Shown: one piece after another, positions 2,495 through 36,089 of the stretch
Layout of the letters: every line of letters starts with the position of its first letter
Numbering within the stretch: the stretch's first letter is position 1
NCBI GenBank assembly: GCA_041917235.1
Contig: JAYRXZ010000006.1
Location: 41,517 to 105,516, forward strand
DNA: 64,000 nt
Reading direction: 5' to 3'
Source: Lacunisphaera sp.
GTDB taxonomy: Bacteria; Verrucomicrobiota; Verrucomicrobiia; Opitutales; Opitutaceae
Program-made: the position numbers and the translations under genes
Notes under the pieces: model-generated
Databases searched by the model: none
Seen by the model: the letters and a program-made list of their open reading frames with translations, nothing else
What the model was told of the DNA's origin: nothing

Positions 2495-2823
2495 GGCGCG
2501 GAGTGGAGAATAAAAGCGACCGCTTGGCAACCGTGACGGCCGGCGTGGAGGCAGACTGGATGGATTCATCGTGGAGCCGCGACTATGCCTGAAACCGGCC
2601 GGGGTGGCTGCGCATATCTTGCGAGCCATTAGCCGGGCCTTGCGGGAATTGCGTCCACCCCTCCGGCCGCCGGAGCAACAACCACAAACCCTGCGCGATA
2701 CTCGGCAACCAATGCGCAGCGACCGGAGCCGGTAACTGGCATTATAGGCGCGACAAGGTGCTGGGCCTCATTAATCTCCCGGCATCGCCTTCCTCATCCA
2801 TCATCACTCCATCCCCGCTCCTC

Positions 2824-3162
2824 ATGAAAAACCGCCATAAAGTCATCACCGCCGGCCTGGTCCTGCTCGCCGGCGCCACCCTGGGCCTCGCCGCCCCTGC
2901 CACCGAAAACTGGGAAAACCACTGCACCAAATGCCACGGCGAGGATGGCAAGGGCCAGACCAAGGTCGGCAAGAAACTCAAGCTGAAGGATTATACCGAC
3001 GCCAAGGCGCAGGCCGAGATGAAGGACGAGGACATGATCAAGGCCATCGCTGACGGCGTGAACGATGCCGCCGGCAAGGAGAAGATGAAGGCCTACAAGG
3101 ACGAGCTTTCGGCCGACGAGATCAAGGAACTCGTCGCCTACATCCGCAAGTTCAAGGCCTGA
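2824..3162 (+). CDS. Small soluble class I monoheme cytochrome c
   Basis: Track ORF 2758..3162; Met at 2824 gives signal peptide MKNRHKVITAGLVLLAGATLGLAAP; single CTKCH heme-binding motif; Lys-rich ~11 kDa mature protein. Confidence 0.8.
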   Translation: MKNRHKVITAGLVLLAGATLGLAAPATENWENHCTKCHGEDGKGQTKVGKKLKLKDYTDAKAQAEMKDEDMIKAIADGVNDAAGKEKMKAYKDELSADEIKELVAYIRKFKA

Positions 3163-3229
3163 GCCGTTCTCCCCCTGTTGCAGGGACGCCGCCTGACGGC
3201 GCCCCTGCCCTTCCCCTCATCCCACGCCC

Positions 3230-4714
3230 ATGTCCACGCCCACCCCGCCCCCCGTCGCGCCACGCTCCCACTTCAACAACTGGATCAGCGCCATCGGCGC
3301 CGTGCTCGCCGTGGGCGCGCTGTTCTCGTTCGCGCTGCTCTGCTGGATGGACCTGACCGGGGCGCACAAGAATCCCTACCTCGGCATCTTCACCTACCTC
3401 GTGGCCCCCGGCTTCCTCATCGCCGGCCTGGTCACGGTCTTTTTCGGCGCCTGGGCCCAGCGCCGCTGGGCGATCAAGCATGCGGCCACCATGCCCGACA
3501 AGTGGCGGCTGGACTTCACCAATCCCAAGCAGCGCAAGATGCTGGTCCTGTTCGGCATCGGGGGCGTCGGGTTCCTGCTCCTGAGCGCCTTCGGCAGCTA
3601 CCAGACCTACCATTACGCGGAGTCCACCCAGTTCTGCGGCCAGGTCTGCCACTCGGCCATGAACCCCGAGTTCGTCACCTACCAGCGCGGAGCACACGCC
3701 CGCGTGGACTGCGTGGAGTGCCATGTCGGGTCCGGCGCCACGGCTTTCATCAAGGCCAAGCTCAACGGCACGCGCCAGCTCATCGGCTATACGCTCAACA
3801 ACTACAACCGGCCGATCGACACGCCGGTGCACAACCTCCGCCCCGCCCGGGAGACCTGCGAGAAGTGCCACTGGCCGGAGAAGTTCCACGGCAACCTCGA
3901 CATCACCTTCGACCACTACCTTTCCGACAAGAAAAACACCCCCGCCAGCGTCCGCATGCTGCTGCATGTGAACTCCGGCCGGCAGGGCGGCCCGCTGGCC
4001 GGCATCCACTGGCACGTCAGCCCCGACAGCTCGGTCGAGTATTACGCCGCCGATGCTGACCGCCAGGACATCGTCTGGATGCGCGTCACGGACAAGAAGG
4101 CCGGCACGTCCCGGATCTACCGCAACGAGGAGTTCAAGGGCGAGCCGCCCGCAGGCACGGTCCGCACGATGGACTGCATCGATTGCCACAACCGCCCGGC
4201 CCACGCCTTCCCGACCGCCAACGACGCCGTCGAAAAGTCGCTCGGGCTCGGCACCCTCAGCACCAAGCTCCCCAACATCAAGCGCAGCGCCGTGCAGGCC
4301 ATGCTGCAGAAGGAGATCACCACCGACGCCGGCGCGCCGCAGCAGATCGCCGATTTCCTCACGGCCAAATACAAGGGCGACCCCGAGCTGCCCGCGGCCA
4401 TCGCCGAGGTGCAGCGCATCTACTCCACCTCCATCTTCCCCGAGCGCAAGGCCGACTGGCGCGTCTACCCGAACAACATCGGCCACAAGGACTGGCCCGG
4501 CTGCTTCCGCTGCCACGACGACAAGCACAAGACCGCCACCGGTGAAACCGTCCGCGCCAGCGACTGCACCTCGTGCCACTCGATCATCGCGCAGGGCAAG
4601 GGCGCCGAGCTCGCCACCATCTCGGCCAGCGGCCTGGAGTTCAAGCACCCCGGCGGCGAGCTCGATCCCGAGCTGAGCTGCGCGGACTGCCACAACGGCG
4701 GCATCCAGAAGTAA
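3230..4714 (+). CDS. Membrane-anchored multiheme cytochrome c, NapC/NirT/NrfH-like N-terminus with 7 CxxCH motifs (ImcH-like putative quinol dehydrogenase)
   Basis: N-terminal TM helices (ISAIGAVLAVGALFSFALL; VAPGFLIAGLVTVFFGAW), then CGQVCH, CVECH, CEKCH in NapC/NirT-like spacing, followed by CIDCH, CFRCH, CTSCH, CADCH. Confidence 0.85.
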   Translation: MSTPTPPPVAPRSHFNNWISAIGAVLAVGALFSFALLCWMDLTGAHKNPYLGIFTYLVAPGFLIAGLVTVFFGAWAQRRWAIKHAATMPDKWRLDFTNPKQRKMLVLFGIGGVGFLLLSAFGSYQTYHYAESTQFCGQVCHSAMNPEFVTYQRGAHARVDCVECHVGSGATAFIKAKLNGTRQLIGYTLNNYNRPIDTPVHNLRPARETCEKCHWPEKFHGNLDITFDHYLSDKKNTPASVRMLLHVNSGRQGGPLAGIHWHVSPDSSVEYYAADADRQDIVWMRVTDKKAGTSRIYRNEEFKGEPPAGTVRTMDCIDCHNRPAHAFPTANDAVEKSLGLGTLSTKLPNIKRSAVQAMLQKEITTDAGAPQQIADFLTAKYKGDPELPAAIAEVQRIYSTSIFPERKADWRVYPNNIGHKDWPGCFRCHDDKHKTATGETVRASDCTSCHSIIAQGKGAELATISASGLEFKHPGGELDPELSCADCHNGGIQK

Positions 4715-4804
4715 CGGCGCCCCGCCGGCAAATTACGCTCCGGTTCGGCCAAGCGCTGCGTAGCCGCGGCGCGGCATTCGGCGCATCCTGTGCGCGGAGC
4801 TACC

Positions 4805-6952
4805 ATGAACGCAATCTGCCGGCGGATCCCGCTACTCGTGTTCACCCTGCTGGCGCCCCTGGGCGCCCGCGCCGCCGACGCGGCCGTCACCCCCGCCCCG
4901 CTCAAGGCGCCGCCCGCGGTGCCCAACTCGGAGTGCATGGACTGCCACGAGGCCGAGTTCAAGGCCCCCAAGAAGGGCCTGCCGCCCGTCTGGATCGGTG
5001 TCCGGCCCGAGCTGTTCGCCAAGTCCGTGCACGGCGGACTGAACTGCGTGGACTGCCACGCCAGCATCAAGGACCCCACCCACGAGGACAAGCTGCCGCC
5101 CGCGCAGTGCGCCTCCTGCCACGAGGGCGCCGCCAAGCAGTTCGCCGCCAGCATCCACGGCGTGAAGCGCGACGGCGGGCTCCCCGTCGCCGCCACCTGC
5201 GCAAGCTGCCACGGCAAGACCCACGAGCTGCTGCCGGTGAAGCACGTGGATTCCCCCGTGGCGAAGTTCAGCCTCCTCGCCACCTGCGCGCAGTGCCACG
5301 AGGGCGACAAGACCAAGCTCGGCCTGAAGAACGGCGACGCCATTGCGCATTTCAAGGACAGCATCCACGGCCAGGGCCTCTACAAGATGGGGCTCAACGT
5401 CTCGCCCACCTGCAACGACTGCCACGGCGTGCACGACATCAAGTCCATCAAGGACGCCTCCGCCCACACCAGCCGCGCCGCCCTGTCCAAGACCTGCGGC
5501 GCCTGCCACGTCGGCGTCGAGAAGACCTACGCGGCCAGCATCCACGGCCAGCCCGCCAAGCCCGGCCAGAAGACCGCGGTCTGCACCGACTGCCACACCG
5601 CGCACGACATCGAGCGCCCCGGCAGCGCGCACTTCAAGCAGACCAGCGACCAGAAGTGCGGCGCCTGCCACGAGGACCGCCTCGCCAACTACCGCGAGAC
5701 CTACCACGGCAAGGCCATGCTGCTCGGCCAGGCCAGCGCCGCCACCGACGTCGCCGCGTGCTACGACTGCCACGGCCACCACGACATCCTCAAGCACACC
5801 GACCCGAAGTCGAAGCTCTCGGCCGGCAACATCGTCCAGACCTGCGCCTCGTGCCACAAGGGCGTCAACGCCGCCTTCACCCAATACCAGCCGCACGCGG
5901 ACCACACCGACGGGAAGAACTACCCGGTGCTCCACTGGACCTACCTCGCGATGACGACGCTGCTCGTCAGCGTGTTCGCCTTCTTCGGCGTGCACACGCT
6001 GCTCTGGATCACGCGCTTCACGCTCACTTATCTCCGCGACCCGGCCGGCTTCCGCGCCGCCCGCGCCGCGCTGCACGACGAGACGGAGACCTACCGCCGC
6101 TTCAACCCCTACGAGCGCTTCCTCCACATGCTCGTCGTCACGAGCTTCCTCGCGCTGGTGCTCACCGGCATGCCGCTGAAGTTCTATTACACCGAATGGG
6201 CGCGAGTCATGTTCAACGTCCTCGGCGGCCCCGAGGCCGCGCGCGTGCTGCACCACCTCGCCGCCCTCGTCACGTTCCTGTATTTCGGCCTGCACCTCGC
6301 CAGCCTCGCGCAGGGCCTGTGGCGGAACCGCGGCGCGGTGCGGGACCCCGCCACCGGGCGCTTCGCCCTCGGCCGGTTCTGGGGCGCCGTGTTCGGGCCC
6401 GACTCCATGGTCCCGTCCTTCCAGGACCTGCGCGACTTCCTCGCCCACGTGAAGTGGTTCCTCGGCCGGGGCCCGCGCCCCTCGTGGGACCGCTGGACCT
6501 ACTGGGAGCGCTTCGACTACCTCGCCGTCTTCTGGGGCGTCGGCATCATCGGCCTCTCCGGCCTCGTGCTGTGGTTCCCGAAGTTCTTCACCACCTTCCT
6601 GCCCGGCTGGCTGATCAACATCGCGGTGGTGATCCACTCCGACGAGGCCCTGCTCGCCGCGGGCTTCATCTTCACGTTCCATTTCTTCAACACGCACTTC
6701 CGGCTGGATAAGTTCCCGATGGATACCGTGATCTTCTCCGGCCACATCTCGAAGGCCGAGATGCTGACCGAGCGCCGCCGGTGGTATGACCGCCTCGTCG
6801 CCTCGGGGAAGCTCGAGCAGCACCGCGTGATCCACACCGACTGGGCCGCCCGGCGCACGCTCTACAAGACGCTCGGCTTCATCTTCGTCGGCATCGGGCT
6901 GCTGCTCCTCGCGCTGATGATCTACGCCCTGCTCTCGCGCCTCGGCCACTGA
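4805..6952 (+). CDS. Fusion protein: N-terminal periplasmic 11-heme c-type cytochrome + C-terminal dihaem cytochrome b membrane domain (FdnI/HydC/PhsC-like); CbcL-like
   Basis: Signal peptide MNAICRRIPLLVFTLLAPLGARA; 11 CxxCH motifs (CMDCH, CVDCH, CASCH x3, CAQCH, CNDCH, CGACH x2, CTDCH, CYDCH). C-terminal ~330 aa with 5-6 TM helices, motif RFNPYERFLHMLV and TM histidines (HHLAALVTFLYFGLH; VVIHSDEA; FTFHFFNTHF). Confidence 0.85.
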   Translation: MNAICRRIPLLVFTLLAPLGARAADAAVTPAPLKAPPAVPNSECMDCHEAEFKAPKKGLPPVWIGVRPELFAKSVHGGLNCVDCHASIKDPTHEDKLPPAQCASCHEGAAKQFAASIHGVKRDGGLPVAATCASCHGKTHELLPVKHVDSPVAKFSLLATCAQCHEGDKTKLGLKNGDAIAHFKDSIHGQGLYKMGLNVSPTCNDCHGVHDIKSIKDASAHTSRAALSKTCGACHVGVEKTYAASIHGQPAKPGQKTAVCTDCHTAHDIERPGSAHFKQTSDQKCGACHEDRLANYRETYHGKAMLLGQASAATDVAACYDCHGHHDILKHTDPKSKLSAGNIVQTCASCHKGVNAAFTQYQPHADHTDGKNYPVLHWTYLAMTTLLVSVFAFFGVHTLLWITRFTLTYLRDPAGFRAARAALHDETETYRRFNPYERFLHMLVVTSFLALVLTGMPLKFYYTEWARVMFNVLGGPEAARVLHHLAALVTFLYFGLHLASLAQGLWRNRGAVRDPATGRFALGRFWGAVFGPDSMVPSFQDLRDFLAHVKWFLGRGPRPSWDRWTYWERFDYLAVFWGVGIIGLSGLVLWFPKFFTTFLPGWLINIAVVIHSDEALLAAGFIFTFHFFNTHFRLDKFPMDTVIFSGHISKAEMLTERRRWYDRLVASGKLEQHRVIHTDWAARRTLYKTLGFIFVGIGLLLLALMIYALLSRLGH

Positions 6953-6962
6953 GGACCCTTCC

Positions 6963-8294
6963 ATGAACGCCACGCCGCTGCTCGACTCCATTCTGCTCGG
7001 GCTGTTCCGTTACCGCACGCGCGGTTTCATGCGGATGACCGACTGTGACGGCACGGTGCCGCCCCGGCCGCAATCAGGCGGGACCTACCTCTACGTGCAC
7101 ATCCCGTTCTGCGAGGCGCTGTGCCCGTTCTGCTCGTTCCACCGCGTGCTGCACTGCCGCCCGCAGGCGAAACGCTACTTCGCCGCGCTCCGCCGCGAGC
7201 TCGAGCTCTACCACGCGGCCGGCTTCGAATTCACCGGGGTCTACTTCGGCGGCGGCACCCCGACCGTCGAGCCGGAGGAGCTGCTTGAGACCATCGCGCT
7301 CGTGCGGACGCGGTTCGCCGTGAAGGAGATCTCGGTCGAGACCAACCCCCGCGACCTCCGCCCCGACCTGCTCGCCCGGCTGCGCGCCGGCGGCGTGACG
7401 CGCCTCTCGGTCGGCGTGCAGAGCTTCGACGACACGCTGCTGCGCGAGATGGGCCGCTTTGAGAAATACGGCGGCGGGGCCGAGACGGCGGAGCGCATCC
7501 GCGGCGTGGCGGGGCTCTTCCCCACCCTCAACGTCGACCTGATCTTCAACCAGCCGCACCAGACCCTCGCGTCGCTCGAGCGCGACCTGGAGATCTTCTC
7601 GACCCTCGGGGCCGGCCAGGTTTCCTGCTATCCGCTGATGACCTCGCCCTCCGGCCTGCGCCGCCTCGCCGGCGCAATGGGCGTGCCCGACCGGCGGCGG
7701 CTGCGCCGGTTTTACCAGACCATCGGGCGCCGGCTCGCGGCCGGCGGCTTCTCGCCGACCTCCGCGTGGTGCTTCACGCGGAACGGCCATGGCAGCGACG
7801 AATACATCGCCACCGCGGACAACTACGTCGGCGCCGGCAGCGGCGCGTTCAGCTACCTCGACGGGACGCTCTACTCGACGAGCTTCTCGCTCAACTCCTA
7901 CGAGGAGCGCATCGCGCGGGGCCTCACCGGCATCGTGACGCGGCACCAGCTCGGGGACACCGACCGCATGCGGTATGCGCTGCTCGTGCGGATGTTCGGC
8001 CTCGGCCTCGACCGCGCGTGGGCGGTCGAGCATCACGGCCGAAAATTCTTCCGCCGCCTCTGGGGCGAGCTGCTCACGCTTGAGCTCCTCGGCGCGGCCA
8101 CGCGCGACGCGCGCGGCTGGCGGCTGACGGAAAAGGGCCGCTACTGGCTCATGCTGATGATGGCGGAATTCTTCGAGTCGGTGAACGCCTACCGCGACGC
8201 GATGCGCGCGCACGTGGCGGCCGAGCAGGCCGCGACCGCGCTGGCCGACCCGCTGCACGCCGCCTCCGCAGATTCCGCTCAGGCCAGTGCCTGA
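6963..8294 (+). CDS. Radical SAM protein, HemN/HemW family (oxygen-independent coproporphyrinogen III oxidase-like / heme chaperone-like)
   Basis: CxxxCxxC cluster in YVHIPFCEALCPFCSF followed by the family hallmark YFGGGTP; ~440 aa. True start may be a downstream Met (MRMTD). Confidence 0.85.
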   Translation: MNATPLLDSILLGLFRYRTRGFMRMTDCDGTVPPRPQSGGTYLYVHIPFCEALCPFCSFHRVLHCRPQAKRYFAALRRELELYHAAGFEFTGVYFGGGTPTVEPEELLETIALVRTRFAVKEISVETNPRDLRPDLLARLRAGGVTRLSVGVQSFDDTLLREMGRFEKYGGGAETAERIRGVAGLFPTLNVDLIFNQPHQTLASLERDLEIFSTLGAGQVSCYPLMTSPSGLRRLAGAMGVPDRRRLRRFYQTIGRRLAAGGFSPTSAWCFTRNGHGSDEYIATADNYVGAGSGAFSYLDGTLYSTSFSLNSYEERIARGLTGIVTRHQLGDTDRMRYALLVRMFGLGLDRAWAVEHHGRKFFRRLWGELLTLELLGAATRDARGWRLTEKGRYWLMLMMAEFFESVNAYRDAMRAHVAAEQAATALADPLHAASADSAQASA

Positions 8295-8472
8295 CCTAAT
8301 GTTAGGTGTTAACCCTACCTCAGGCCTAAGCATCGCTAATACACACCAAATCGTGCATACAACTCCGCAAGTGATGCGCAGCCATTGCCACCCCGTTCCG
8401 ATAGAGTGACCACGCTGAACCAGAACCTTTCCCCCGAACCAAGCCCAACCCTTCACTCCTAACTTTACGCCC

Positions 8473-9252
8473 ATGAAACTCCCGCTCCGCTGGACAAAAA
8501 ACACGCTGATCTTCGGCGGCATCGCCGCCTGGGGCCTCCTGCTGGTCTCCTGCGTTTCCGTCAACCGCTCCGTCATGGCACCGCCCTCGGTGCCGGGGGC
8601 CAAATTCGTGGGCACCAAGGCCTGCGCCGAATGCCATGAGACCGTGACCACGGGATTCCATGACGCGACGCACGCCAAGCTCACCGCCGATGGCGGCAAC
8701 GGCCAGGACATCGGCTGCGAGGCCTGCCACGGCCCCGGCAGCATCCACGTGAAGTCCGGCGGCGGCGCCGGCAGCATCGTGAACCCGGGCAACTCGCCCG
8801 AGACCTGCTTCCAGTGCCACCTGGACAAGCGCGGCGAGTTCAGCCTGCCGAACACCCACCCGGTGCTCGCCGGCAAGATGAGCTGCAGCGACTGCCACAG
8901 CCCGCACACCGGCGACGCCATCAACGAGACCAACACCGGCATGTCGACGCTCAACTCGTCCTGCCTGAAGTGCCACACCTCACAGGGCGGCCCCTATGTC
9001 TTCGAGCACGAGGCTTCCCGCGAGGGTTGCATGTCCTGCCACAGCCCGCACGGCTCCGTGAACCAGAAGATGCTCAAGGCCCGCAATGCCAACCTCTGCC
9101 TGCAATGCCACTTCCAGGAGCAACCCTCCGCCGGTGTCATCATGATCGGCGGCCGCGACCACGCGAGCTTCCTGTCCCGCGGCACCTGCTGGTCCGGTGG
9201 CTGCCACGAGGCCGTCCACGGCTCACACGTCAGCTCCTCCCTCCGCTTCTAA
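8473..9252 (+). CDS. Periplasmic/lipoprotein multiheme cytochrome c (7 CxxCH + 1 CxxxxCH), MtrA/OmaB-like
   Basis: Signal/lipobox region IAAWGLLLVSC; motifs CAECH, CEACH, CFQCH, CSDCH, CLKCH, CMSCH, CLQCH plus CWSGGCH in 259 aa, i.e. extremely heme-dense. Confidence 0.85.
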   Translation: MKLPLRWTKNTLIFGGIAAWGLLLVSCVSVNRSVMAPPSVPGAKFVGTKACAECHETVTTGFHDATHAKLTADGGNGQDIGCEACHGPGSIHVKSGGGAGSIVNPGNSPETCFQCHLDKRGEFSLPNTHPVLAGKMSCSDCHSPHTGDAINETNTGMSTLNSSCLKCHTSQGGPYVFEHEASREGCMSCHSPHGSVNQKMLKARNANLCLQCHFQEQPSAGVIMIGGRDHASFLSRGTCWSGGCHEAVHGSHVSSSLRF

Positions 9253-9277
9253 CACCCAAACCATCACGGATACTCCG

Positions 9278-11404
9278 ATGAACTCCACCGCCATTCTCCA
9301 CCTGATTCGCCGGCCCATGCTGGTCCTCGCGGGGGCGAGCCTGCTGGGCCTGCCGGGCGCCTTGAGCGCCCAAACCGGCAAGGCCAAGGAACCGACCTAC
9401 GAGAACTACATCGACTTCTCCGCGGGCTACAACCTGCAGGAGGGCGACCGCCCCGGCTTCCAGAAGCAATTCCAGCTCAATAAAAAGGGATCCATCGGCA
9501 TCGAGGATCTCTACTACACCACCGAGCTGAAGAACGAGGCCGTCCTCAAGCTCCGTGGCCATGCCCTGGCCGGGAACCATGACTACCTCCTCGACCTGTC
9601 CATCACCAAGGACGAGGTCGGCTACCTGAAGGCCGGCTACAAGATGTTCCGCACCTGGTATGATGGCAGCGGCGGCGTCTGGCCCACCAACGGCCTGCGC
9701 ATCCAGCTCTACGACGAGGACCTGCATGTCGACCGCGGCAACCTCTGGCTGGAGGCCGGCTTCACCAAGCCCGACGCCGTCAACTTCATGTTCCGTTACG
9801 ACTACCTCACGAAGAAGGGCCAGAAGGATTCCACCAGCTGGATGGACACCGGTCTCGCCGTCAGCGCGTCGGCCACCCGCTACATCGTGCCGACCTACCT
9901 GACCTTCGACGAGAAGCGCCACATCCTCAACGGCACCGTCTCGAAGGTCGCGGGCAAGCATGACCTCGCCCTGGGCCTCCGTTACGACAAGGGCGAGTAT
10001 GAGAACGGCCGCTACAGCCGCCGCACCCCGGGGCAGTCGACCGACCGCTACGTCACCGCCAAGGAGGGCCAGGACTTCGATCTGTTCCAGATCCGCGGCA
10101 GCTATCTCAACCAGCTGACCGAGAAGCTCAAGCTGACCACCGCCGTCGCCCGCACCAAGATCGACACCATCCTCAGCGGCAGCCGCATCTTCGGCACCGG
10201 CTACGACGCGGACTACAGCAGCACCTTCCCGACCCGCCAGCAGCGCGACGAGGGCTATTTCAGCCTGCTCCCCGGCAACGAGCTCGGCAAATCGCAGATG
10301 ACGCAGACCGTCGCCACCCTCAGCGCGCTGTATCTCGGCTCCGAGACCCTCCGCATCACGCCCTCCTTCCGGTTCGAGAAGACCCAGTGGCACAACCTGA
10401 TCGGGTTCGAGGAAACGAACTTCGGTGCCGCCCCCACCTTCACGCCCATCAACGACGAGGTGGAGGCCCGGAGCGCGAAAAGCTGGAAGACCTACGCCGC
10501 CAGCGTCGAAGCCCGCTACACCGGTTACAAGAACGTCTCACTCAACTTCAAGGCCGACTGGTCCAACTCCGCGGGCGAGCTCCAGGAGGAGCGCATCCTT
10601 GAGCCGGGCACCCCGCTGCAGGCCATCTCGATCGACCGCGACACCGAGCTGGAGCGCAGCGTGCAGAAGTATGCCTACACCGCCAACTGGTATGCCCGCC
10701 CCGGCACCACCGTCGCGGTGCAATACTACTTCAAGGCCCGCCAGAACGACTACCGCGCCACCCGCGACAACACCGTCAGCACCGCCGACCGCTACCCGGC
10801 CTACGTCACCGGCCAGGACTTTGAGACCAATGACTTCAACATCCGCCTGTCGCACCGCCTGTCGCCCAACTTCCGGACGATCACGCGCTACGACTACCAG
10901 AAGACCACCGTCCGCTCGCAGGAGGTCGGCTTGGCGTTCGCCCAGAGCATGGAGTCCATCCAGCACATCCTCTCCGAGAGCGTGACCTGGAACCCGCTCG
11001 CCCGCTGGTATCTCCAGGGCAACGTCAACTACGTGAACGAGACCCTCAAGACTCCGGCCGTCGGCCTGACCGGCGCCGCGAGCAACCTCGTGAAGAACAG
11101 CGATTCGAACTACGTGAACTTCAGCCTGAGCAGCGGCTACGCCCTCGACGAACAGAGCGACCTACTGGTGGATTACATGCTCTACAAGGCGATGGGTAAT
11201 TACATCAACAACTCCGCCGTCACCGTGCCCTACGGCACCGACAGCAAGCTGCAGACCTTCTCGGTGGGCTGGAACCGCCGCATGAACGCCCGCACGACGG
11301 TCAACCTGAAGTATACCTACGCCAAGAACGAGGACGTCCCGTCGCTCGGCGCCGCTGACTACGAGGGCCACCTGCTCTACGGTAAGGTCCAGTATCGCTT
11401 CTGA
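9278..11404 (+). CDS. Outer-membrane beta-barrel protein (~708 aa), putative porin partner of the upstream multiheme cytochrome (MtrB/MtoB/OmbB-like)
   Basis: Track ORF 9197..11404; Met at 9278 gives signal peptide MNSTAILHLIRRPMLVLAGASLLGLPGALSAQ. Alternating hydrophobic/aromatic beta-strand pattern throughout; C-terminus ...LYGKVQYRF with terminal Phe typical of OMPs. Starts 26 bp after the cytochrome gene. Confidence 0.75.
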   Translation: MNSTAILHLIRRPMLVLAGASLLGLPGALSAQTGKAKEPTYENYIDFSAGYNLQEGDRPGFQKQFQLNKKGSIGIEDLYYTTELKNEAVLKLRGHALAGNHDYLLDLSITKDEVGYLKAGYKMFRTWYDGSGGVWPTNGLRIQLYDEDLHVDRGNLWLEAGFTKPDAVNFMFRYDYLTKKGQKDSTSWMDTGLAVSASATRYIVPTYLTFDEKRHILNGTVSKVAGKHDLALGLRYDKGEYENGRYSRRTPGQSTDRYVTAKEGQDFDLFQIRGSYLNQLTEKLKLTTAVARTKIDTILSGSRIFGTGYDADYSSTFPTRQQRDEGYFSLLPGNELGKSQMTQTVATLSALYLGSETLRITPSFRFEKTQWHNLIGFEETNFGAAPTFTPINDEVEARSAKSWKTYAASVEARYTGYKNVSLNFKADWSNSAGELQEERILEPGTPLQAISIDRDTELERSVQKYAYTANWYARPGTTVAVQYYFKARQNDYRATRDNTVSTADRYPAYVTGQDFETNDFNIRLSHRLSPNFRTITRYDYQKTTVRSQEVGLAFAQSMESIQHILSESVTWNPLARWYLQGNVNYVNETLKTPAVGLTGAASNLVKNSDSNYVNFSLSSGYALDEQSDLLVDYMLYKAMGNYINNSAVTVPYGTDSKLQTFSVGWNRRMNARTTVNLKYTYAKNEDVPSLGAADYEGHLLYGKVQYRF

Positions 11405-11423
11405 GGCCGACTCCCTCACCCCC

Positions 11424-11457
11424 GGCCGCGGCGTCCTCGGACCCGCGGCCTTTTTGT
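11424..11457 (+). terminator. Rho-independent terminator after the cytochrome/porin operon
   Basis: GGCCGCGG cgtcctcggac CCGCGGCC followed by TTTTTGTTT, 20 bp after the stop at 11404. Confidence 0.7.
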
Positions 11458-11704
11458 TTATTCCCTGTGGGTCTAACCCCCCGGAGCTTGCTCCGACTTG
11501 GATTGTGCAATCCCACGGCGAGGTCGCCGTGGCTCCAGATCCGGCGCCTGGAGCGCGGGCGACCCCGCCCGCGAAGGGTTCGTTCAAAGGCCCGGAGCTT
11601 GCTCCGGGGATATTTACGGCCCTGGCCCCGGGGCCCGCAATATCCGCGCAGTGCCTGACAACGGGCGCAGGGCCGACCGCGCCCCTCCCTGCTAGAATGA
11701 GGGC

Positions 11705-13117
11705 ATGAACCTGCTCGCGCCCTCCGCCCCGTCAGCTCCCGCCGCCGCATCGCACGTGTGGCCCGTGGCCGTCATCGGCGGCGGCCTCACCGGCCTCGCC
11801 ACCGCCTGGCAGCTGCGCCGGGCGGGCGTCCCGGTCGTGGTGTTCGAGGCCGGCGTGGCCCCCGGCGGCGTCATCGGCTCCGGCCGCGAGGGCGGCTGGC
11901 TGGTCGAGACCGGCCCCAACACCCTCTTCGAGAACACCCCGGATATCTCGGCCTTCCTCACGGAGCTCGGACTGCGCGATCGCCGGCTTGTGGCCAATCC
12001 CGCCGCGGCGAAGCGCTACGTCGTGCAACATGGCGCCCCCGTGGCCCTGCCCGACTCCGCGTTTAAGTTCATTACCACCCCGCTCCTGTCAGCCCGCGCC
12101 AAGCTCAACGTGCTCGGCGAACCCTTCCGTGGCCGCCCGCCGGCGGGCAAGGAGGAATCCGTCGCGGAGTTCGTCACGCGCCGCCTCGGCCCGGAGTTTC
12201 TCGACTACATCGTGAACCCGTTCGTCGCGGGCGTCTTCGCCGGCGACCCGGCCGCCCTGTCCGTGAAGCACGCCTTCCCCAAGCTCTTCGCGCTGGAACA
12301 CGAGCACGGCTCGCTCGTCCGCGGCTCGCTCGCGCGGCGCAACGCCACCGGCGCCCCGAAGGGCAGCATGATCTCCTTTCCTGACGGCCTGGCGGAGATC
12401 CCCCGCGCCCTCGCCCGGGCCCTCGGCTCCGACCTGCGACTCGGCCACGCCGTCACCCATGTCCGCCGCACCGGCTCGACCTGGCAGGTCGGCTTCATCA
12501 CCGGCGGCATCCGCCGGGAGGAGGAATTTGCCGCCGTGATCTGCGCGCTGCCGCCCGACCTGCTGGGCGGGCTCCGGTTTGAGGGCGCCCCCGCCGCCGG
12601 CGCGCTCGCCCAGCTGCGCCGGGTCACCTCGCCGGCCGTCGCCTCCGTGTTCCTCGGCTACCGCCGGGAGGACGTCGCGCACCCGCTCGACGGCTTCGGC
12701 ATCCTCACCCCCGCGGTCGAGCGGCGCCGCATCCTCGGCACGCTGTTTTCCAGCACCCTGTTCCCCGGCCGCGCGCCGGAGGGACATGTCGCCCTGACCA
12801 CCTTCGTCGGCGGCACGCGGCAGCCGGAACTCGCCGGCGCCAGCGACCGCGAGCTGCTCGACACCGTCCGCTCCGAACTTGGCGCGCTGCTCGGCGTGCA
12901 CGGCGAACCCGTGTTCACCCGGATCCAGCGCTGGCCGCACGCCATCCCGCAATACACCGTCGGCTTCCAACAGTTCAAGGATGCCTGCGCCGCCGCCGAG
13001 GCCGGCGCGCCCGGCCTTTTCATCGGCGGCACCAGCCGCGACGGTGTCTCGCTCTCGCAATGCATCGCCGCCGGCAAGCGGCTGGCTGCGGCCGTCCAAC
13101 AGGCCGTCACGGCCTGA
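11705..13117 (+). CDS. hemY: Protoporphyrinogen oxidase (HemY/PPOX family, FAD-dependent)
   Basis: N-terminal dinucleotide-binding motif VAVIGGGLTGLATAWQL; length and conservation pattern of PPOX (VQHGAPVALP; FxGGxSRDGVSL near C-terminus). Confidence 0.8.
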   Translation: MNLLAPSAPSAPAAASHVWPVAVIGGGLTGLATAWQLRRAGVPVVVFEAGVAPGGVIGSGREGGWLVETGPNTLFENTPDISAFLTELGLRDRRLVANPAAAKRYVVQHGAPVALPDSAFKFITTPLLSARAKLNVLGEPFRGRPPAGKEESVAEFVTRRLGPEFLDYIVNPFVAGVFAGDPAALSVKHAFPKLFALEHEHGSLVRGSLARRNATGAPKGSMISFPDGLAEIPRALARALGSDLRLGHAVTHVRRTGSTWQVGFITGGIRREEEFAAVICALPPDLLGGLRFEGAPAAGALAQLRRVTSPAVASVFLGYRREDVAHPLDGFGILTPAVERRRILGTLFSSTLFPGRAPEGHVALTTFVGGTRQPELAGASDRELLDTVRSELGALLGVHGEPVFTRIQRWPHAIPQYTVGFQQFKDACAAAEAGAPGLFIGGTSRDGVSLSQCIAAGKRLAAAVQQAVTA

Positions 13118-13450
13118 GGCAACTGCATCGAAGGTGGAACCCGGCCTCTGGACGGGTTGGTCAGATGTGCGCCAAGAAATCAGATCCAGCCTGTCCGCCA
13201 TAGTCTCGGCAAAGGCGGAAGGCCTGTTTCGCCCAGCGAGTGCTTTCAAACCCCTCAGCTTCCGAAACCTGTCATTCTGAGCGTAGCGAAGTCTAGCCAG
13301 CAGGCTGGTTCGACATCCAGTTGAATGCTCGCTGCTCAAGCAAAGCGGCCCACATCCCGATGCATTCTTCACTGCGTTCAGAATGACAAATCGAGATTCT
13401 AAAACACTTCCTGGTTTAACTCCGCATCCCGGCTCCGTCGCCAAGGGCCC

Positions 13451-14551
13451 TCACCCCGCCAGGCTGACGGCCGGATAAAACTCGACCGGACGGTCGGCGG
13501 CCGTCGCTTGGGCATCCCCGGCCTGCAGCGCCCGCTCGGCCTGCGCCCAGAGGGTGGTCGTGCGCTCGGCGAGGATCTCGCGGCAGCGGATGATCTCCGA
13601 CTCCCGCGCCGCGCGGTTTTCCGCGGCGATCTTCGCGAGGTCGTCGAGATTGTAGACAAAGACGTTCTTGAGCGCAGTGACGCCGGCATCGACGTCGCGC
13701 GGCAGGGCGGCATCGATGAAAAACATCGGCCGGCCCGAGCGCTGCTGCATCGCGGCGGCAGCCCGCTCCGGCGAGATGATGGCCGCGGGACAGGAGGTGG
13801 AGCAGACCACGACGTCGAATTCGCCCAGTCGGGTGAGCGCCTCGTCAAAGGAGACCGCCGTGGCCCCCAGTTCCATTGCCGCCTCGCTGGCACGCTCCAG
13901 GCGCCGGCTGGCGACCACCAACGAACCCGGGCTGCGGCTGCGGAAGGCGCGGCCGCTCTTCAGGCCGATGTCGCCGGCACCCAACAACAGCACCTTCGTT
14001 TCGTCGAGCTTGCCGAAGATCCGCAGCGCGACCTCCACGGCCACGTTCGAGACGCTGACCAGGCCCGCCGTGATGCCCGTGTGCGTGCGGACGTGCTTGG
14101 CCGCCTGGAAGGCTTTCTGGAAAATGCGGTTCAGGACCGGACCCGCCGAGCCCCGGCCCTGTGCGGTGAGGAAGGCTTTCTTCACCTGGCCGAAAATCTC
14201 GTTCTCGCCGATCATCTGGGAATCGAGGCCGCTCGCCACCTCCAGCAGATGCTCGACCGTCGCGCGGCCGGCCAAGCCCAGCTTGATCCGATCAAATTCC
14301 TCCGGCGCGAAGCCCTGCCGCGCGCAGAACGCCGCGGCCACTTGGGCGGCCTGGCGATCGTTCTCGCCGACCCCGTAGATTTCCACGCGGTTGCAGGTGT
14401 TCAGGATGACAAACTCGACCAGGCCCGGGAGCCCCTTCAGGTCCGCGGCCAGACCGGCCTCGTTCACGGCGGAGAGGGCCAGCTTTTCGCGCAGCCCGAG
14501 CGGGGCGGTGCGGTGGGTGGCGCCAACAAGAAACAGTTGTCCGTCGTTCAT
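13451..14551 (-). CDS. hemA: Glutamyl-tRNA reductase
   Basis: Track ORF 13451..14878(-); the conserved HemA N-terminus begins at internal Met MNDGQLFLVGATHRTAPLGLREKLAL; contains ILNTCNRVEIYG (catalytic Cys region) and NADPH-binding LLLGAGDIG. Confidence 0.85.
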   Translation of the reverse strand: MNDGQLFLVGATHRTAPLGLREKLALSAVNEAGLAADLKGLPGLVEFVILNTCNRVEIYGVGENDRQAAQVAAAFCARQGFAPEEFDRIKLGLAGRATVEHLLEVASGLDSQMIGENEIFGQVKKAFLTAQGRGSAGPVLNRIFQKAFQAAKHVRTHTGITAGLVSVSNVAVEVALRIFGKLDETKVLLLGAGDIGLKSGRAFRSRSPGSLVVASRRLERASEAAMELGATAVSFDEALTRLGEFDVVVCSTSCPAAIISPERAAAAMQQRSGRPMFFIDAALPRDVDAGVTALKNVFVYNLDDLAKIAAENRAARESEIIRCREILAERTTTLWAQAERALQAGDAQATAADRPVEFYPAVSLAG

Positions 14552-14798
14552 CGTGCGGTGGTAGGGTGAAATCTGAACCCGGCCAGTATCGCAGGGATGC
14601 CCGGAACCGTCTGCGCGACGGTTGCCATCCACTCCGCAGTTCTTGCGCCCTGTGCCTGGGGGACCGCCCCGGGACCCGCCTGATCCCCTAATGCCCCTTA
14701 TGAGAAGGCCTTGAACGTCCGCCGGCCCGCCGGGGGCCCCGGCGGGCCGGCCAAGTTTCTGTTCGACAAGCCCCCGCCCGGCGCCTTCTGTTCCGGCC

Positions 14799-15035
14799 AT
14801 GGCCTCGCCTGAGAAAAAGCCCTTTTCCGTCGTCACCCTCGTCATTGACCTGACGCTCACCGCCATCGCCTTTGGCATCTTTTACTGGCTCGTGAACTCG
14901 CACGTGCCCTCCAACGACCCGAAGATGGTCATGCTGTGGGGTGGCCTCGCCGCCGGCTGCATGGCCGGCGTGTTCTGGCTCGCCTGGCAGATGCTCAAGG
15001 TCGTCTTCCAGTTCCAGCGCGATTCGCGCAAGTGA
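14799..15035 (+). CDS. Small hypothetical membrane protein (78 aa, 2 predicted TM)
   Basis: Strong GC3 bias; two hydrophobic helices; no competing credible ORF (overlapping 14882..16366(-) ORF is antisense to a real gene). Confidence 0.5.
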   Translation: MASPEKKPFSVVTLVIDLTLTAIAFGIFYWLVNSHVPSNDPKMVMLWGGLAAGCMAGVFWLAWQMLKVVFQFQRDSRK

Positions 15036-15065
15036 GCCATGCGCCCCCGCGGCGCGAATAGATCT

Positions 15066-15097
15066 GGCCCCACCCCGGCGGTGGGGCTATTTTTTTG
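15066..15097 (+). terminator. Rho-independent terminator
   Basis: GGCCCCACC ccggc GGTGGGGC followed by TATTTTTTT. Confidence 0.6.
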
Positions 15098-15157
15098 CCA
15101 ATCCTGCCATGCGCCCCCGCCCCGAACCCCTGACCGGACGCTGACCGGCCTGCACGG

Positions 15158-16597
15158 ATGACCACCCCCGGGTTCCAACACATCGCCGTCATCGGCGGCG
15201 GTTTCAGCGGCACGATGGCCGCCCTCAACCTCGCCCGCCTCGGCGCCGCGCCCCTCCGCGTCACCCTGCTCAACCACGGCTCGCCTGCCGGCCGTGGCAT
15301 CGCCTACGGCACCCGCCGCCCCGAGCACCTGCTCAACGTCGCCGCCCGCAACATGTCGGCGCTGCCCGACCACCCGAACCATTTCCTCGAGTGGCTCCGC
15401 ACCCGCACCGAATACGCCGACGTGCCCGACGCCGAGCTGCGCGAGACCTTCATGCCGCGCCGCGTCTACGGCGACTACCTCCGCAGCCTGGCCCAGCACT
15501 ACATGCGGCCGCTCGACCCGCGGTGCGGCGCGGAGTTCGCCCAGCTCAATGACGAGGTCCTCGCGCTCGAGCCCGCCGGCGCTGGCGCCCGGCTCCGGCT
15601 CGCGAGCGGCGCCACGCTCGACGCCGACAAGGTCGTCCTCGCCACGGGCAACGAGCCGCCCGCCGACCTGCCGGGCCAAAACACCGTCGCCACCCACGCC
15701 GCCTGGTGCGCCAACCCGTGGCTGGACTGGGAATCGCGCATCCCCGCGTCGGGCGACATTGTGCTGCTCGGCACCGGCCTCACGACGGTGGATGCGATCA
15801 TCACCCTGCTCGCCCTCGGCTGGCGCGGCACCATCCACGCCGTCTCGCGCCACGGCCTGCTGCCCGAATCCCATTTCAAGGGCGTGGACGATCCGCTGTT
15901 TCCACCGCCCAACGTCGACCTCGCCACGCTCGGCCTCGGGGGCCTCGTCCGCCTCCTCGAGGAACACTGCGCCCGCCTGCGTGCCGCCGGCCTCAACCCC
16001 GCCATGGTCGTGGACAAGCTGCGCCCGCACACGCAGCGGATCTGGGGCGCCTTCACCGACGCGGAACGGCGCGAGTTCGTCGCGAAGCACGCCGCGCGCT
16101 GGAACGTCCTGCGCCATCGCATCGCCCCGTCCATCCACCGCCAGGTCACGGACGCCCTCGCTTCCGGCCGGCTGAAGATCACGCGCGCCGCCGTGACCGG
16201 CGTGAAACCCCTCGGCGCCAGGATCGGCGTCGAGCTGCGCGGCCGCGACGGGGTGGTTTCCGTCATGGAAGCCGCGCTCGCCATCAACTGCACCGGCCCG
16301 CACACCCGCTTCTCCGCCACGCGCTCGCCCCTGCTGCAGCAGCTCCTGCGGAGCGGACTCGCCCAACCCGACCCGATGGACATGGGCATCCGCGTCGAAC
16401 CGGACTTCGCGGTCGTCAATCGCGACGGCCGGCGCTCGCCCTGCCTGTTTGCCATCGGCCCGCTGTTGCGCGGCACGCTGTGGGAGAGCGTCGCGGTGCC
16501 CGAGCTGCGCGGCCAGGCGCTGCGCGTCGCGCAGACCCTGCTCGACGCCGGCACGACCGCGCCGGTCGAGACCACGGTCCTCGAATATCAGATCTGA
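15158..16597 (+). CDS. FAD/NAD(P)-binding oxidoreductase (YdhS/COG4529-like family)
   Basis: N-terminal IAVIGGGFSGTMAALNL Rossmann motif; second nucleotide-binding-like segment DIVLLGTGLTTVDAI; 479 aa. Confidence 0.75.
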   Translation: MTTPGFQHIAVIGGGFSGTMAALNLARLGAAPLRVTLLNHGSPAGRGIAYGTRRPEHLLNVAARNMSALPDHPNHFLEWLRTRTEYADVPDAELRETFMPRRVYGDYLRSLAQHYMRPLDPRCGAEFAQLNDEVLALEPAGAGARLRLASGATLDADKVVLATGNEPPADLPGQNTVATHAAWCANPWLDWESRIPASGDIVLLGTGLTTVDAIITLLALGWRGTIHAVSRHGLLPESHFKGVDDPLFPPPNVDLATLGLGGLVRLLEEHCARLRAAGLNPAMVVDKLRPHTQRIWGAFTDAERREFVAKHAARWNVLRHRIAPSIHRQVTDALASGRLKITRAAVTGVKPLGARIGVELRGRDGVVSVMEAALAINCTGPHTRFSATRSPLLQQLLRSGLAQPDPMDMGIRVEPDFAVVNRDGRRSPCLFAIGPLLRGTLWESVAVPELRGQALRVAQTLLDAGTTAPVETTVLEYQI

Positions 16598-16695
16598 GGG
16601 TGGAACCCGGCCTCCGGACGGGTTCGTGCCACGCCCATCAGACCGCTCCAGTCATCGCTTGCTCAAGCCAGCCCGTCCGGAGGCCGGGCTCCACC

Positions 16696-17430
16696 TCAAG
16701 CCACGGACTTCTTCCGCCGGCCCATGAAGGCCGAGGCCCAGATGGAAAGCTCATAGAGCAGGCACAACGGCACCGCGAAGAGCGTCTGCGTGACCATGTC
16801 CGGCGTCGGCGTGACGATGGCGGAGATGATGAAGCACACGACGATGGCGTGGCGGCGGTATCTGCGGAGCGTGGCGACCTCCACGAGGCCGATGTAGCTG
16901 GCGAGCACGATGAGCAGCGGAAACTCGAAGGTCACGCCCACCCCCAGCACCAGCCAGGTGAGCAGGCCGAAGTATTTGTCCGCCGTCCACATCGGGTCCA
17001 CGCCCATGTAGGCGCTGAACTCGTAGGCGATGCGCACCGTGCTCGGCACGAGCAGGAAATAGCCGAACGACGCGCCGATCAGGAACAGCACCAGGGCCGC
17101 CAGGCAGGCGGGCACGAGGACCTTCATCTCCTTCTTCGTCAGCGCGGGCGCGATGAACTGCGCCACGAAGAAGAACCAGAACGGCAGCGACAGCGCCACG
17201 CCGCCGACCAGCGCGATGCTGATGAGCATGTTGAAGATGCCCATCGGGCTGTTCGTGATCAGGTGGGTGGTGAACTGCGGGAAGTCGGCCCGCACGCTCT
17301 CCAGCGGCCAGATGAGCACCGCGTAGAATTCCTTGAGGTAGAAGCTGATCACGCCCACGAAGACCGCGAAGACGATGGCGCTTTTCATCAGCGTCCAGCG
17401 CAGGTCCTCCAGGTGGTCGAGGAAACCCAT
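16696..17430 (-). CDS. tatC: Sec-independent (twin-arginine) protein translocase subunit TatC
   Basis: MGFLDHLEDLRWTL... with 6 TM helices typical of TatC. Start placed at the internal Met; an upstream in-frame extension in the track ORF is probably non-coding. Confidence 0.8.
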   Translation of the reverse strand: MGFLDHLEDLRWTLMKSAIVFAVFVGVISFYLKEFYAVLIWPLESVRADFPQFTTHLITNSPMGIFNMLISIALVGGVALSLPFWFFFVAQFIAPALTKKEMKVLVPACLAALVLFLIGASFGYFLLVPSTVRIAYEFSAYMGVDPMWTADKYFGLLTWLVLGVGVTFEFPLLIVLASYIGLVEVATLRRYRRHAIVVCFIISAIVTPTPDMVTQTLFAVPLCLLYELSIWASAFMGRRKKSVA

Positions 17431-17701
17431 GGGCTTGCCCGCGGCGACCGCCGGCGCGGCGTCGCCGGTCGCGGCCTCATCATATTCATCCACTGGGGGT
17501 TGCTCGCTCAAGCCCTGACCTAGAAGCAACTTTCCCCCGGGCCCGCAAGGCCCGTATTTCCGCCCCGGGGGCCCGCCGCCCGGGCTGCGCATCCCTTGTC
17601 ATAACCAATTCCCGGGCCCGCCCTACAGTTAGACCCGCCTCGAACGTTGACACCCCCGCGCCCGCCCGCTGCGATAACCTTCCCTATTTTTCATTTCACC
17701 C

Positions 17702-30963: not shown

Positions 30964-31022
30964 GACCCAGGTAGGGCGCGGACTCCGTCCGCGCCCCGGC
31001 GGCGAAGGGACTCGCCGCCCTA

Positions 31023-31145
31023 CCTCAATCCTCCCGCTTCATCTTCGGCGGGGTCTCGTCCTTCTTGGCCTTGATGATGACCATGATCAGCACGGCGATG
31101 CTGAGCAGGATGCCGAGGGCGGAAACAAACATGAGCAGGCGCATG
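31023..31145 (-). CDS. Small hypothetical membrane protein (40 aa) just downstream of the SPFH gene
   Basis: Own translation MRLLMFVSALGILLSIAVLIMVIIKAKKDETPPKMKRED; GGAG Shine-Dalgarno ~8 nt upstream of ATG; not in track (<60 aa). Confidence 0.35.
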
Positions 31146-31165
31146 GGAATTTCTCCGGTTGAAGA

Positions 31166-32836: not shown

Positions 32837-33022
32837 GTGTGTGCGGAGTTGAGGTTCTGCCCGGACGGGCGAAACGGGTCTGTAACGCCGGCAGCAAAGC
32901 GCACCGCGCCCGGCCAGTCGAGCCCGGAGGGGCCGGCACGAAACGCTCCTCCCGATTATAATAAACGCGCACGGCAAGCATTTGCCGGCTCCACCCGCCG
33001 GGCGGGAGGTCACTGTAACCAC

Positions 33023-34252: not shown

Positions 34253-34259
34253 GGACCCT

Positions 34260-36089
<1,830 letters not shown>

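Follow-up and report, generated by a model that had tools for sequence, protein, structure and literature searches.

Can a cytochrome and an outer-membrane barrel encoded side by side carry electrons across the outer membrane on their own and, if so, in which direction? This question is raised by a locus within a 64-kb stretch of contig JAYRXZ010000006.1 from Lacunisphaera sp. (the window, to which all coordinates refer), where a gene for a multihaem cytochrome (8473–9252) is followed by a gene for a large barrel protein (9278–11404), both on the plus strand. These open reading frames (ORFs) had been described from the letters of the window as a porin-cytochrome pair (the original prediction), and the present analysis, in which their products were found to be homologous to MtrA and MtrB, respectively, bears out that description and indicates that the pair is probably a two-protein electron conduit of the MtrAB type across the outer membrane.

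A "novel porin-multihaem cytochrome c" cluster, in which a porin predicted to have 20 or more strands is paired with a cytochrome with eight conserved haem sites, was described in Verrucomicrobia by He et al. (mSphere, 2017; PMC5615132), who listed Trout Bog metagenome-assembled genomes (MAGs), Opitutus terrae PB90-1, Opitutus sp. GAS368 and Verrucomicrobia bacterium IMCC26134 as carriers. The window locus, in which a verrucomicrobial barrel of at least 20 strands adjoins a cytochrome with eight haem sites, is a further member of this type of cluster, predicted at that time from freshwater genomes. Homologues of the barrel (56% identity) and of the cytochrome (72% identity), accompanied by the same neighbour genes, occur in the Lacunisphaera limnophila genome CP016094, which we take to be that of strain IMCC26134.

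Haem sites and signal sequence of the cytochrome

The cytochrome gene encodes 259 residues, and a motif scan of the translation placed CXXCH motifs at starting residues 51, 82, 112, 138, 164, 186 and 209, as compared with approximately 0.08 such motifs expected by chance from the Cys/His-rich composition of the protein itself. The eighth and last site is CWSGGCH at residues 239–245 (9187–9207, plus strand), a non-canonical CX4CH motif. Eight sites had been counted in the original prediction, with the reservation that the CX4CH motif might be a sequencing or frameshift artefact. Conservation was examined in the 120 nearest database homologues of the cytochrome (64–92% identity) and in 78 distinct loci from different GTDB species genomes with barrel identities down to 35%. 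Among the former, CW[STA][AGST][GA]CH was found at the same position in every sequence and seven CXXCH motifs in 118, and among the latter, the pattern of seven CXXCH and one CX4CH (CW-x-x-G/A-CH) was kept in all 78 cytochrome ORFs. Eight histidines outside the motifs (H67, H92, H129, H145, H179, H193, H230 and H249) were invariant in a 45-sequence alignment, which matches the number of second ligands predicted for eight bis-His haems, and CX4CH thus behaves as a real eighth site.

The N-terminus, MKLPLRWTKNTLIFGGIAAWGLLLVSC, is a lipoprotein signal peptide of the signal peptidase II (SPII) type (8473–8553, plus strand) with the lipobox L-V-S-C at its end, and the mature protein is predicted to begin with Cys27 (8551–8553), in lipidated form. 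This signal, also part of the original prediction, is widely shared, as the lipobox was found in 119 of the 120 close homologues and in 74 of the 78 cytochromes of the locus set, with Cys27 invariant in 45 of 45 aligned homologues. Given conservation on this scale, neither the CX4CH motif nor the lipobox can be put down to a frameshift or a sequencing error. The first haem motif follows Cys27 at a distance of only approximately 23 residues. At the opposite end of the protein, the loop that precedes the last haem is strongly conserved (45-sequence alignment). The protein ends in a tetrapeptide (9238–9249 in the window) that has the form [SA]LRF in 71 of 78 relatives; a similar ending, ALRY, is found in Photobacterium MtrA, and there is a superficial likeness to the aromatic signal at the C-terminus of outer-membrane barrels.

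Relationship of the cytochrome to MtrA

By sequence, the cytochrome is a clear homologue of MtrA. A phmmer search matched residues 78–254 to residues 156–326 of MtrA from PDB entry 6r2q_A (E 5.7e-28; the PDB name table labels this chain "Cystathionine beta-synthase"), and identity to Photobacterium MtrA was 36% in a MAFFT alignment. The Photobacterium reference proteins were drawn from a verified mtrCAB locus, the MtrB of which scores 510.6 bits against PF11854. In the MAFFT register, the eight sites of the window cytochrome correspond to MtrA haems 3–10, and the N-terminal segment that carries haems 1 and 2 of MtrA is without counterpart. In a second, weaker register obtained with HMMER, the second site of the window protein (CEACHGP..H.K.GG) was paired with MtrA haem 2, so that internal rather than N-terminal haem loss is also possible. 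The CX4CH motif aligned with haem 10, the last motif of MtrA, with an insertion of two residues, in both alignments and with MtrA from both S. baltica and Photobacterium. The assignment of the cytochrome as MtrA-like in the original prediction is in agreement with these results.

Matches to related decahaem families were noted for TIGR03508 (DmsE family; E 1.6e-45, 155.6 bits versus a cut-off of 192.2) and NF041028 (GSU2203 family; 169.1 bits versus a cut-off of 325). In place of the ten CXXCH motifs of the MtrA/DmsE family, the window protein has seven CXXCH and one CX4CH, and in place of a signal peptidase I (SPI) signal, which in Photobacterium MtrA ends in VHA before the A at which the mature protein begins, a conserved L[VI][SGA]C is found.

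The position of each end of MtrA is known from the crystal structure of MtrCAB: the N-terminal end extends into the periplasm, and at the cell surface only haem 10 is exposed. The exposed edge of this haem (A10) allows MtrAB to reduce soluble Fe(III) without MtrC (PMC7198977). These details bear on the placement of the window cytochrome, for which the conserved lipobox might be taken to indicate a different location. Thus, the cytochrome could be a surface-exposed lipoprotein with the function that MtrC or OmcB has elsewhere, either threaded into the barrel from outside or merely exported or docked by it, with another carrier spanning the half that faces the periplasm. The lipoprotein cytochromes of model systems (MtrC and OmcB) are the surface ones, and the loop before the last haem is well conserved although no MtrC partner is encoded nearby, both of which speak for such a placement. 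However, the haem-by-haem homology of the window protein is with MtrA, the subunit inserted in the barrel, rather than with MtrC, the domain family of which (PF22113) gave 21.8 bits as opposed to a cut-off of 30. Moreover, the N-terminus of MtrA is its periplasmic end (PMC7198977), and the short distance from Cys27 to the first haem motif is what would be expected if the protein were tethered where the barrel opens to the periplasm. A surface location of the entire cytochrome is for these reasons considered very unlikely.

Relationship of the barrel to MtrB

The barrel gene starts 25 nt past the cytochrome stop codon and encodes 708 residues, including a signal peptide (residues 1–31; 9278–9370; predicted cleavage between GALSA and QTG) and a C-terminal β-signal, VQYRF. 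An alternative start, GTG at 9197, was rejected, since the gene would then overlap that for the cytochrome, and alignments with homologues begin at the ATG at 9278. The model obtained with AlphaFold2 (AF2) from a 37-sequence alignment (mean predicted local distance difference test score, pLDDT, 82; predicted template modelling score, pTM, 0.75) was all-β with 26 long strands, which is the low end of the 26–28 strands guessed in the original prediction; the YRF terminus noted there is also present. The first strands of the model are short, a helix (residues 58–65) lies between strands 1 and 2, and only about 13 residues separate the predicted signal cleavage site from the first strand, so that no space is left for a plug domain. 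The strand number, the shortness of the initial strands and a helix at this position are all on record for MtrB (PMC7198977), and the model fits the structural description of that protein.

In addition to this fold match, which was specific to MtrB, homology was evident between profiles. Thus, profile A3, built from 67 sequences of the window barrel family collected in an all-against-library search, was aligned by hhalign with profile A2, built from 26 true MtrB/PioB proteins collected with a Photobacterium MtrB query, at 99.6% probability and E 1.7e-24 over 610 columns (41–707 versus 45–701). This match, which runs from end to end, identifies the barrel family as a remote, full-length homologue of MtrB/PioB. 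The relationship is a distant one, identity between the window barrel and MtrB being approximately 10%, and less sensitive comparisons did not reveal it. The alignment of a shallow barrel profile (A1) with a single Photobacterium MtrB reached 1% probability in hhalign, a phmmer search with MtrB returned nothing convincing among 267 members of the barrel family, and PDB sequence searches with the barrel, either as a single sequence or as a 37-sequence profile, gave no match, as was also the case for Pfam and NCBIfam searched with the 37-sequence profile. PF11854 (MtrB_PioB) was matched by one of 37 family members (E 8.6e-07), and ten distant representatives searched against Pfam showed no grading into PF11854, with weak generic-porin matches only. 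Current family models thus fail to recognise this sequence family as a homologue of MtrB/PioB.

Conservation and distribution of the gene pair

Relatives of the barrel were found in 361 GTDB species genomes, and the family comprises 1089 representatives when clustered at 50% identity. Locus analysis was performed with the best 80 stretches among these relatives, which correspond to the 78 distinct loci referred to above, and nearly all of which are from Verrucomicrobiota, Opitutaceae, Pedosphaera, Chthoniobacterales and Limisphaerales among them. A cytochrome with seven CXXCH and one CX4CH was encoded in 70 of the 78 loci, and immediately after 59 of 78 such ORFs there was an ORF of 500 or more residues, the remainder being mostly cut by contig ends. 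The pairing persists at 35% barrel identity. Large additional multihaem genes, as possible surface partners, were rare beside the pair in these relatives. Cultured carriers include L. limnophila and Oleiharenicola, and also Opitutus terrae according to the list of He et al. (PMC5615132). The window itself was 99.99% identical to a contig from run SRR26835158 and 91–93% identical to Lacunisphaera MAGs.

Two or three tandem cytochrome-barrel pairs were noted in some Verrucomicrobiota genomes (L020, L039, L046, L048, L054 and L069), for example L048, with cytochrome ORFs at 2353, 5800 and 9009, an arrangement that recalls the duplicated porin-cytochrome modules of Geobacter. An ORF of approximately 230–250 residues with four CXXCH motifs, absent from the window, was found near the pair in L005, L018, L031, L038, L039, L044 and L048; its product could be a CymA/NrfH-like or a periplasmic tetrahaem partner.

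Conservation of the pair is also relevant to whether a conduit is formed at all, since an ordinary periplasmic carrier of the NrfB type could merely be encoded next to a generic porin or transporter. The L. limnophila homologue (P0156) is publicly named "cytochrome c nitrite reductase pentaheme subunit", the window cytochrome has a weak match to NrfB (E 9e-10), and the barrel is without a Pfam or NCBIfam family assignment, all of which would be expected from such an arrangement. Identity with NrfB was nevertheless rejected, as the match reached 38.5 bits versus an equivalog cut-off of 184, and the public name is probably a misannotation judging from the sequence. Nor was a multihaem nitrite reductase of the NrfA type found in the 64-kb window, where all three ORFs with more than one CXXCH (3230–4714, 4790–6952 and 8473–9252) are accounted for. 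Further, the two genes stay together down to the lowest barrel identities sampled and are duplicated in tandem as a unit in several genomes, and the barrel, which has no room for a plug, matches MtrB specifically, both by fold and by profile. It is therefore most improbable that the two proteins are adjacent without forming a conduit.

Upstream cytochrome genes and the direction of electron flow

Three genes upstream of the pair, which the original prediction overlooked, encode further cytochromes with a functional link to it. The first product (2824–3162, plus strand) is a monohaem class-I cytochrome c of 112 residues with a signal peptide and a CTKCH motif, which scored above the cut-offs of PF00034 and PF13442 and was 58% identical (tblastn) to a 113-residue cytochrome encoded after the barrel in L. 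limnophila. By its position, which is analogous to that of MtoD, it is a candidate periplasmic shuttle.

The second product (3230–4714, plus strand; 494 residues) is an ImcH-like inner-membrane cytochrome. The published signature of ImcH consists of a length of approximately 495–519 residues, three N-terminal transmembrane helices, an atypical CX3CH motif adjacent to them and six CXXCH motifs (PMC6295460). The window protein, which was compared with ImcH by that signature, agrees with it in having hydrophobic segments at residues 17–44, 50–76 and 103–124, CX3CH (CGQVCH) at residue 136 beside the third segment and six CXXCH motifs. A match to the NapC/NirT N-terminal region (PF03264) was also noted, with weak matches to NrfH and TorC models. 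An ImcH-like ORF was found in 49 of the 78 loci, for each of which the region fetched extended up to 10 kb on either side of the barrel.

The third product (4790–6952, plus strand; 720 residues) resembles CbcL/MtoC/MtrH proteins, with an N-terminal periplasmic domain that contains 11 CXXCH motifs and, after it, the hydrophobic segments of a putative C-terminal membrane cytochrome-b domain of the HydC/FdnI type (PF01292, 28.6 bits versus a cut-off of 30.1; formate dehydrogenase gamma models, E 6e-8). It was 63% identical to a PF01292-bearing protein from the L. limnophila cluster, in which the gene order (cytochrome, barrel, monohaem cytochrome c, ImcH-like and two CbcL-like genes) differs from that of the window. 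The link of the pair to ImcH-, CbcL- and monohaem-cytochrome genes is conserved, and together these genes outline a complete route from quinol to the outside of the cell.

The same neighbours allow the opposite direction to be considered, namely that the conduit works inward, like MtoAB and PioAB, and feeds the quinone pool or an oxidase with electrons taken from a partner cell, reduced humics or Fe(II) outside the cell. The original prediction had likened the pair to these conduits of Fe(II) oxidisers. With respect to composition, this comparison holds, as MtoAB and PioAB also consist of two components without MtrC, and the cluster includes a monohaem cytochrome c, the position of which is like that of MtoD, and a putative member of the CbcL/MtoC/MtrH family, a family found in Fe(III) reducers as well as in Fe(II) oxidisers, while Mtr conduits are able to run either way (PMC6295460). 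The implied function as an Fe(II) oxidiser, on the other hand, is at odds with the ImcH-type neighbour. This gene is the inner-membrane gene most consistently linked to the pair, and the only role linked to ImcH to date is quinol oxidation, in organisms that all transfer electrons outward (PMC6295460). Likewise, the cluster was found by He et al. only in genomes from an anoxic, humic-rich bog, of bacteria described as polysaccharide degraders (PMC5615132). Inward flow is thus judged unlikely. By analogy, the association with ImcH and the ecology of these bacteria favour outward flow, to humics or Fe(III), over oxidation of Fe(II), and this is the weakest step of the proposal.

Downstream region and other features of the window

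As stated in the original prediction, a terminator comes straight after the barrel gene. A GC-rich hairpin at 11424–11450, located 20 nt past the barrel stop codon, is followed by UUUUUGUUUAUU, and the whole element (11424–11462, plus strand) has the fold energy and sequence of an intrinsic terminator (hairpin −24.5 kcal/mol, z = −2.0 relative to shuffled sequences). This terminator, which closes the two-gene unit of cytochrome and barrel, was not picked up by a consensus terminator scan. Upstream, a spacer of 178 bp precedes the cytochrome gene; no sigma-70-like promoter was found by consensus scan, and no Rfam match was found in positions 1–20000 of the window.

The perfect palindrome CGGAGCTTGCTCCG occurs at 11482–11495 and again at 11593–11606, 111 nt apart, within the 300-nt spacer between the barrel terminator and a protoporphyrinogen oxidase gene and nowhere else in the window, where 0.04 matches are expected by chance. 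An operator function for this palindrome was considered and dropped, as it is missing from the closest related MAGs (L003, L004 and L028), and it is probably not a conserved operator, judging from these sequences.

Haem-biosynthesis genes flank the cluster. The gene at 6963–8294 (plus strand) encodes a radical-SAM protein of the HemN (coproporphyrinogen III oxidase) family (NF006385, 412.8 bits versus 355; PF04055), which is probably tied to haem supply rather than part of the wire and the gene for which stands between the upstream cytochrome genes and the pair, and protoporphyrinogen oxidase (11705–13117, plus strand) and glutamyl-tRNA reductase (HemA; 13451–14551, minus strand) are encoded on the other side. 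The L. limnophila cluster is bordered instead by a cytochrome c assembly gene (PF01578). Genes for haem supply may thus be co-located with those for haem-rich proteins. The original prediction had noted that no gene for a surface decahaem partner follows the pair, and a scan for multihaem ORFs extends this result, in that no MtrC-like or other surface decahaem gene was found in the 64-kb window.

On the minus strand, an ORF at 1370–2629 encodes 419 residues with a lipobox-like LASC near the N-terminus and two internal repeats of approximately 130 residues (...AFPGDVGGDLAN[VL]NRW.GQLG...GATWFFKLTGP...). Its product had no convincing family match, the one NCBIfam match having an E value of 0.0012. 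GC skew is negative across nearly all of the window and briefly near zero or positive at about 30000–36000, and GC content peaks at 0.72–0.73 around 32–34 kb and 38–40 kb.

Discussion

The locus can be read as encoding a conduit in which, by homology to the structure of MtrCAB, the 26-strand barrel would form a sheath around the eight-haem cytochrome, an arrangement also supported by the conserved adjacency of their genes. The N-terminus of the cytochrome would lie at the periplasmic mouth of the barrel and its last haem, bound by CX4CH and equivalent to MtrA haem 10, at the cell surface. As suggested by the lipobox and by the short gap between Cys27 and the first haem, the N-terminal lipid would probably hold the cytochrome at the inner leaflet of the outer membrane, so that it would not project freely, and this tether would replace the two-haem segment by which MtrA reaches into the periplasm. 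Judging from the neighbouring genes, electrons from the quinol pool would leave through the ImcH-like or CbcL-like inner-membrane cytochrome, or both, possibly cross the periplasm on the monohaem cytochrome c and then run along the chain of eight haems to the exposed terminal haem. Since no MtrC-like protein is encoded nearby, the most plausible acceptors would be soluble or colloidal, such as humic quinones and chelated Fe(III). Acceptors of the same kind were proposed by He et al. (PMC5615132).

The case for this conduit begins with features that were read from the sequences themselves, namely homology of the two proteins to MtrA and MtrB, their conserved pairing, the eight haem sites and the conserved lipobox. 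Several points weigh against it. The cytochrome-barrel family is known from gene sequences alone, and both the insertion of the cytochrome in the barrel and its orientation are carried over from MtrCAB. The window barrel matches no Pfam or NCBIfam model, PF11854 being without a match even at E ≤ 10, and shows no pairwise similarity to MtrB, homology being visible between profiles only. The cytochrome stays under the trusted cut-offs of both decahaem families (TIGR03508 and NF041028), and its AF2 model (45-sequence alignment; pLDDT 46.7, pTM 0.26) was unusable and was left out of fold searches and haem mapping. With regard to direction, proteins of the CbcL/MtoC type and monohaem cytochromes c also accompany the Mto systems of Fe(II) oxidisers, which would permit inward flow. 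Lastly, sequence does not tell at which of three sites (inner membrane, inner leaflet of the outer membrane or cell surface) a verrucomicrobial lipoprotein comes to reside, and a gene for an extracellular cytochrome partner could lie outside the window.

The window locus differs in some respects from the cluster as described in 2017. Thus, the cytochrome was said to be periplasmic, whereas that of the window is a predicted lipoprotein; Mtr-homologous systems were said to be absent, whereas the window cytochrome is homologous to MtrA and the barrel, remotely, to MtrB/PioB; and an extracellular multihaem gene was seen "in several cases", whereas none is present at the window locus. In comparison with MtrAB of Shewanella (PDB 6R2Q; Edwards et al., 2020, PMC7198977), each of the eight motifs of the cytochrome has its counterpart among the ten of MtrA, the HGS...LR[F/Y] tail is aligned as well, the barrel model shares the strand number, short first strands and helix between strands 1 and 2, and the cytochrome gene is likewise directly upstream of the barrel gene. 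Unlike the Shewanella system, however, the window locus has eight haems rather than ten, a final CX4CH rather than CXXCH, a lipoprotein rather than a Sec signal, no MtrC, a barrel of low identity that falls below Pfam and NCBIfam thresholds, and ImcH- and CbcL-like partners rather than CymA.

Similarity to MtoAB and PioAB, as compared by composition (PMC6295460), extends to two components without MtrC and to the monohaem cytochrome c and, putatively, the CbcL/MtoC-family inner-membrane cytochrome that accompany them. In contrast with the window protein, MtoA and PioA are decahaem members of the MtrA family and are found in iron oxidisers, while the ImcH-like gene linked to the window pair points outward. 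To our knowledge, neither MtoA nor PioA is a lipoprotein. The OmaB/OmbB/OmcB complex of Geobacter, compared by description, also contains an eight-haem inner cytochrome and a porin-like barrel, is duplicated in tandem in some genomes and has ImcH and CbcL as inner-membrane partners, where the window has ImcH- and CbcL-like genes. This complex has a third component, the lipoprotein cytochrome OmcB at the surface, and a porin with approximately 20 predicted strands, and it is regarded as having no relationship to Mtr, unlike the window pair.

Other surveys provide a context for these comparisons. A survey published in 2018 found no mtrAB or mtoAB adjoining imcH (PMC6295460), whereas ImcH-type genes accompany pairs of the window type. 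Verrucomicrobia are not listed in a survey of the distribution of MtrCAB (PMC8805035), as would be expected from a search for the three-gene cluster with MtrC. In a 2026 preprint, porin-cytochrome clusters transcribed in peat, which may belong to the window family, were described from other orders of Verrucomicrobiota.

What is added here is that the verrucomicrobial porin-cytochrome pair is a distant relative of MtrAB, with a cytochrome that is a predicted lipoprotein and has a modified terminal haem site, and that the pair travels with an ImcH-type gene. These additions refine a published hypothesis and do not define a new kind of system. A more far-reaching possibility, offered tentatively and regarded as doubtful, is that of a minimal, self-sufficient Mtr wire, in which a lipid-anchored, shortened, eight-haem homologue of MtrA would use its invariant, Trp-containing CX4CH haem as the terminal reductase at the cell surface, without an MtrC-type partner and hard-wired in the genome to ImcH. 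If this were true, hundreds of species of Verrucomicrobiota would possess a compact route of their own, encoded by five genes, for passing electrons from quinol to humics.

The existence of cultured carriers makes the prediction of a conduit directly testable, and the locus is a well-defined target in cultured Opitutaceae. Soils, lakes and peat harbour large numbers of these bacteria and of other Verrucomicrobiota. If the conduit works, sugar-degrading members of the phylum would be able to respire humic substances or iron, and carbon would thereby be shifted away from fermentation and the formation of methane.

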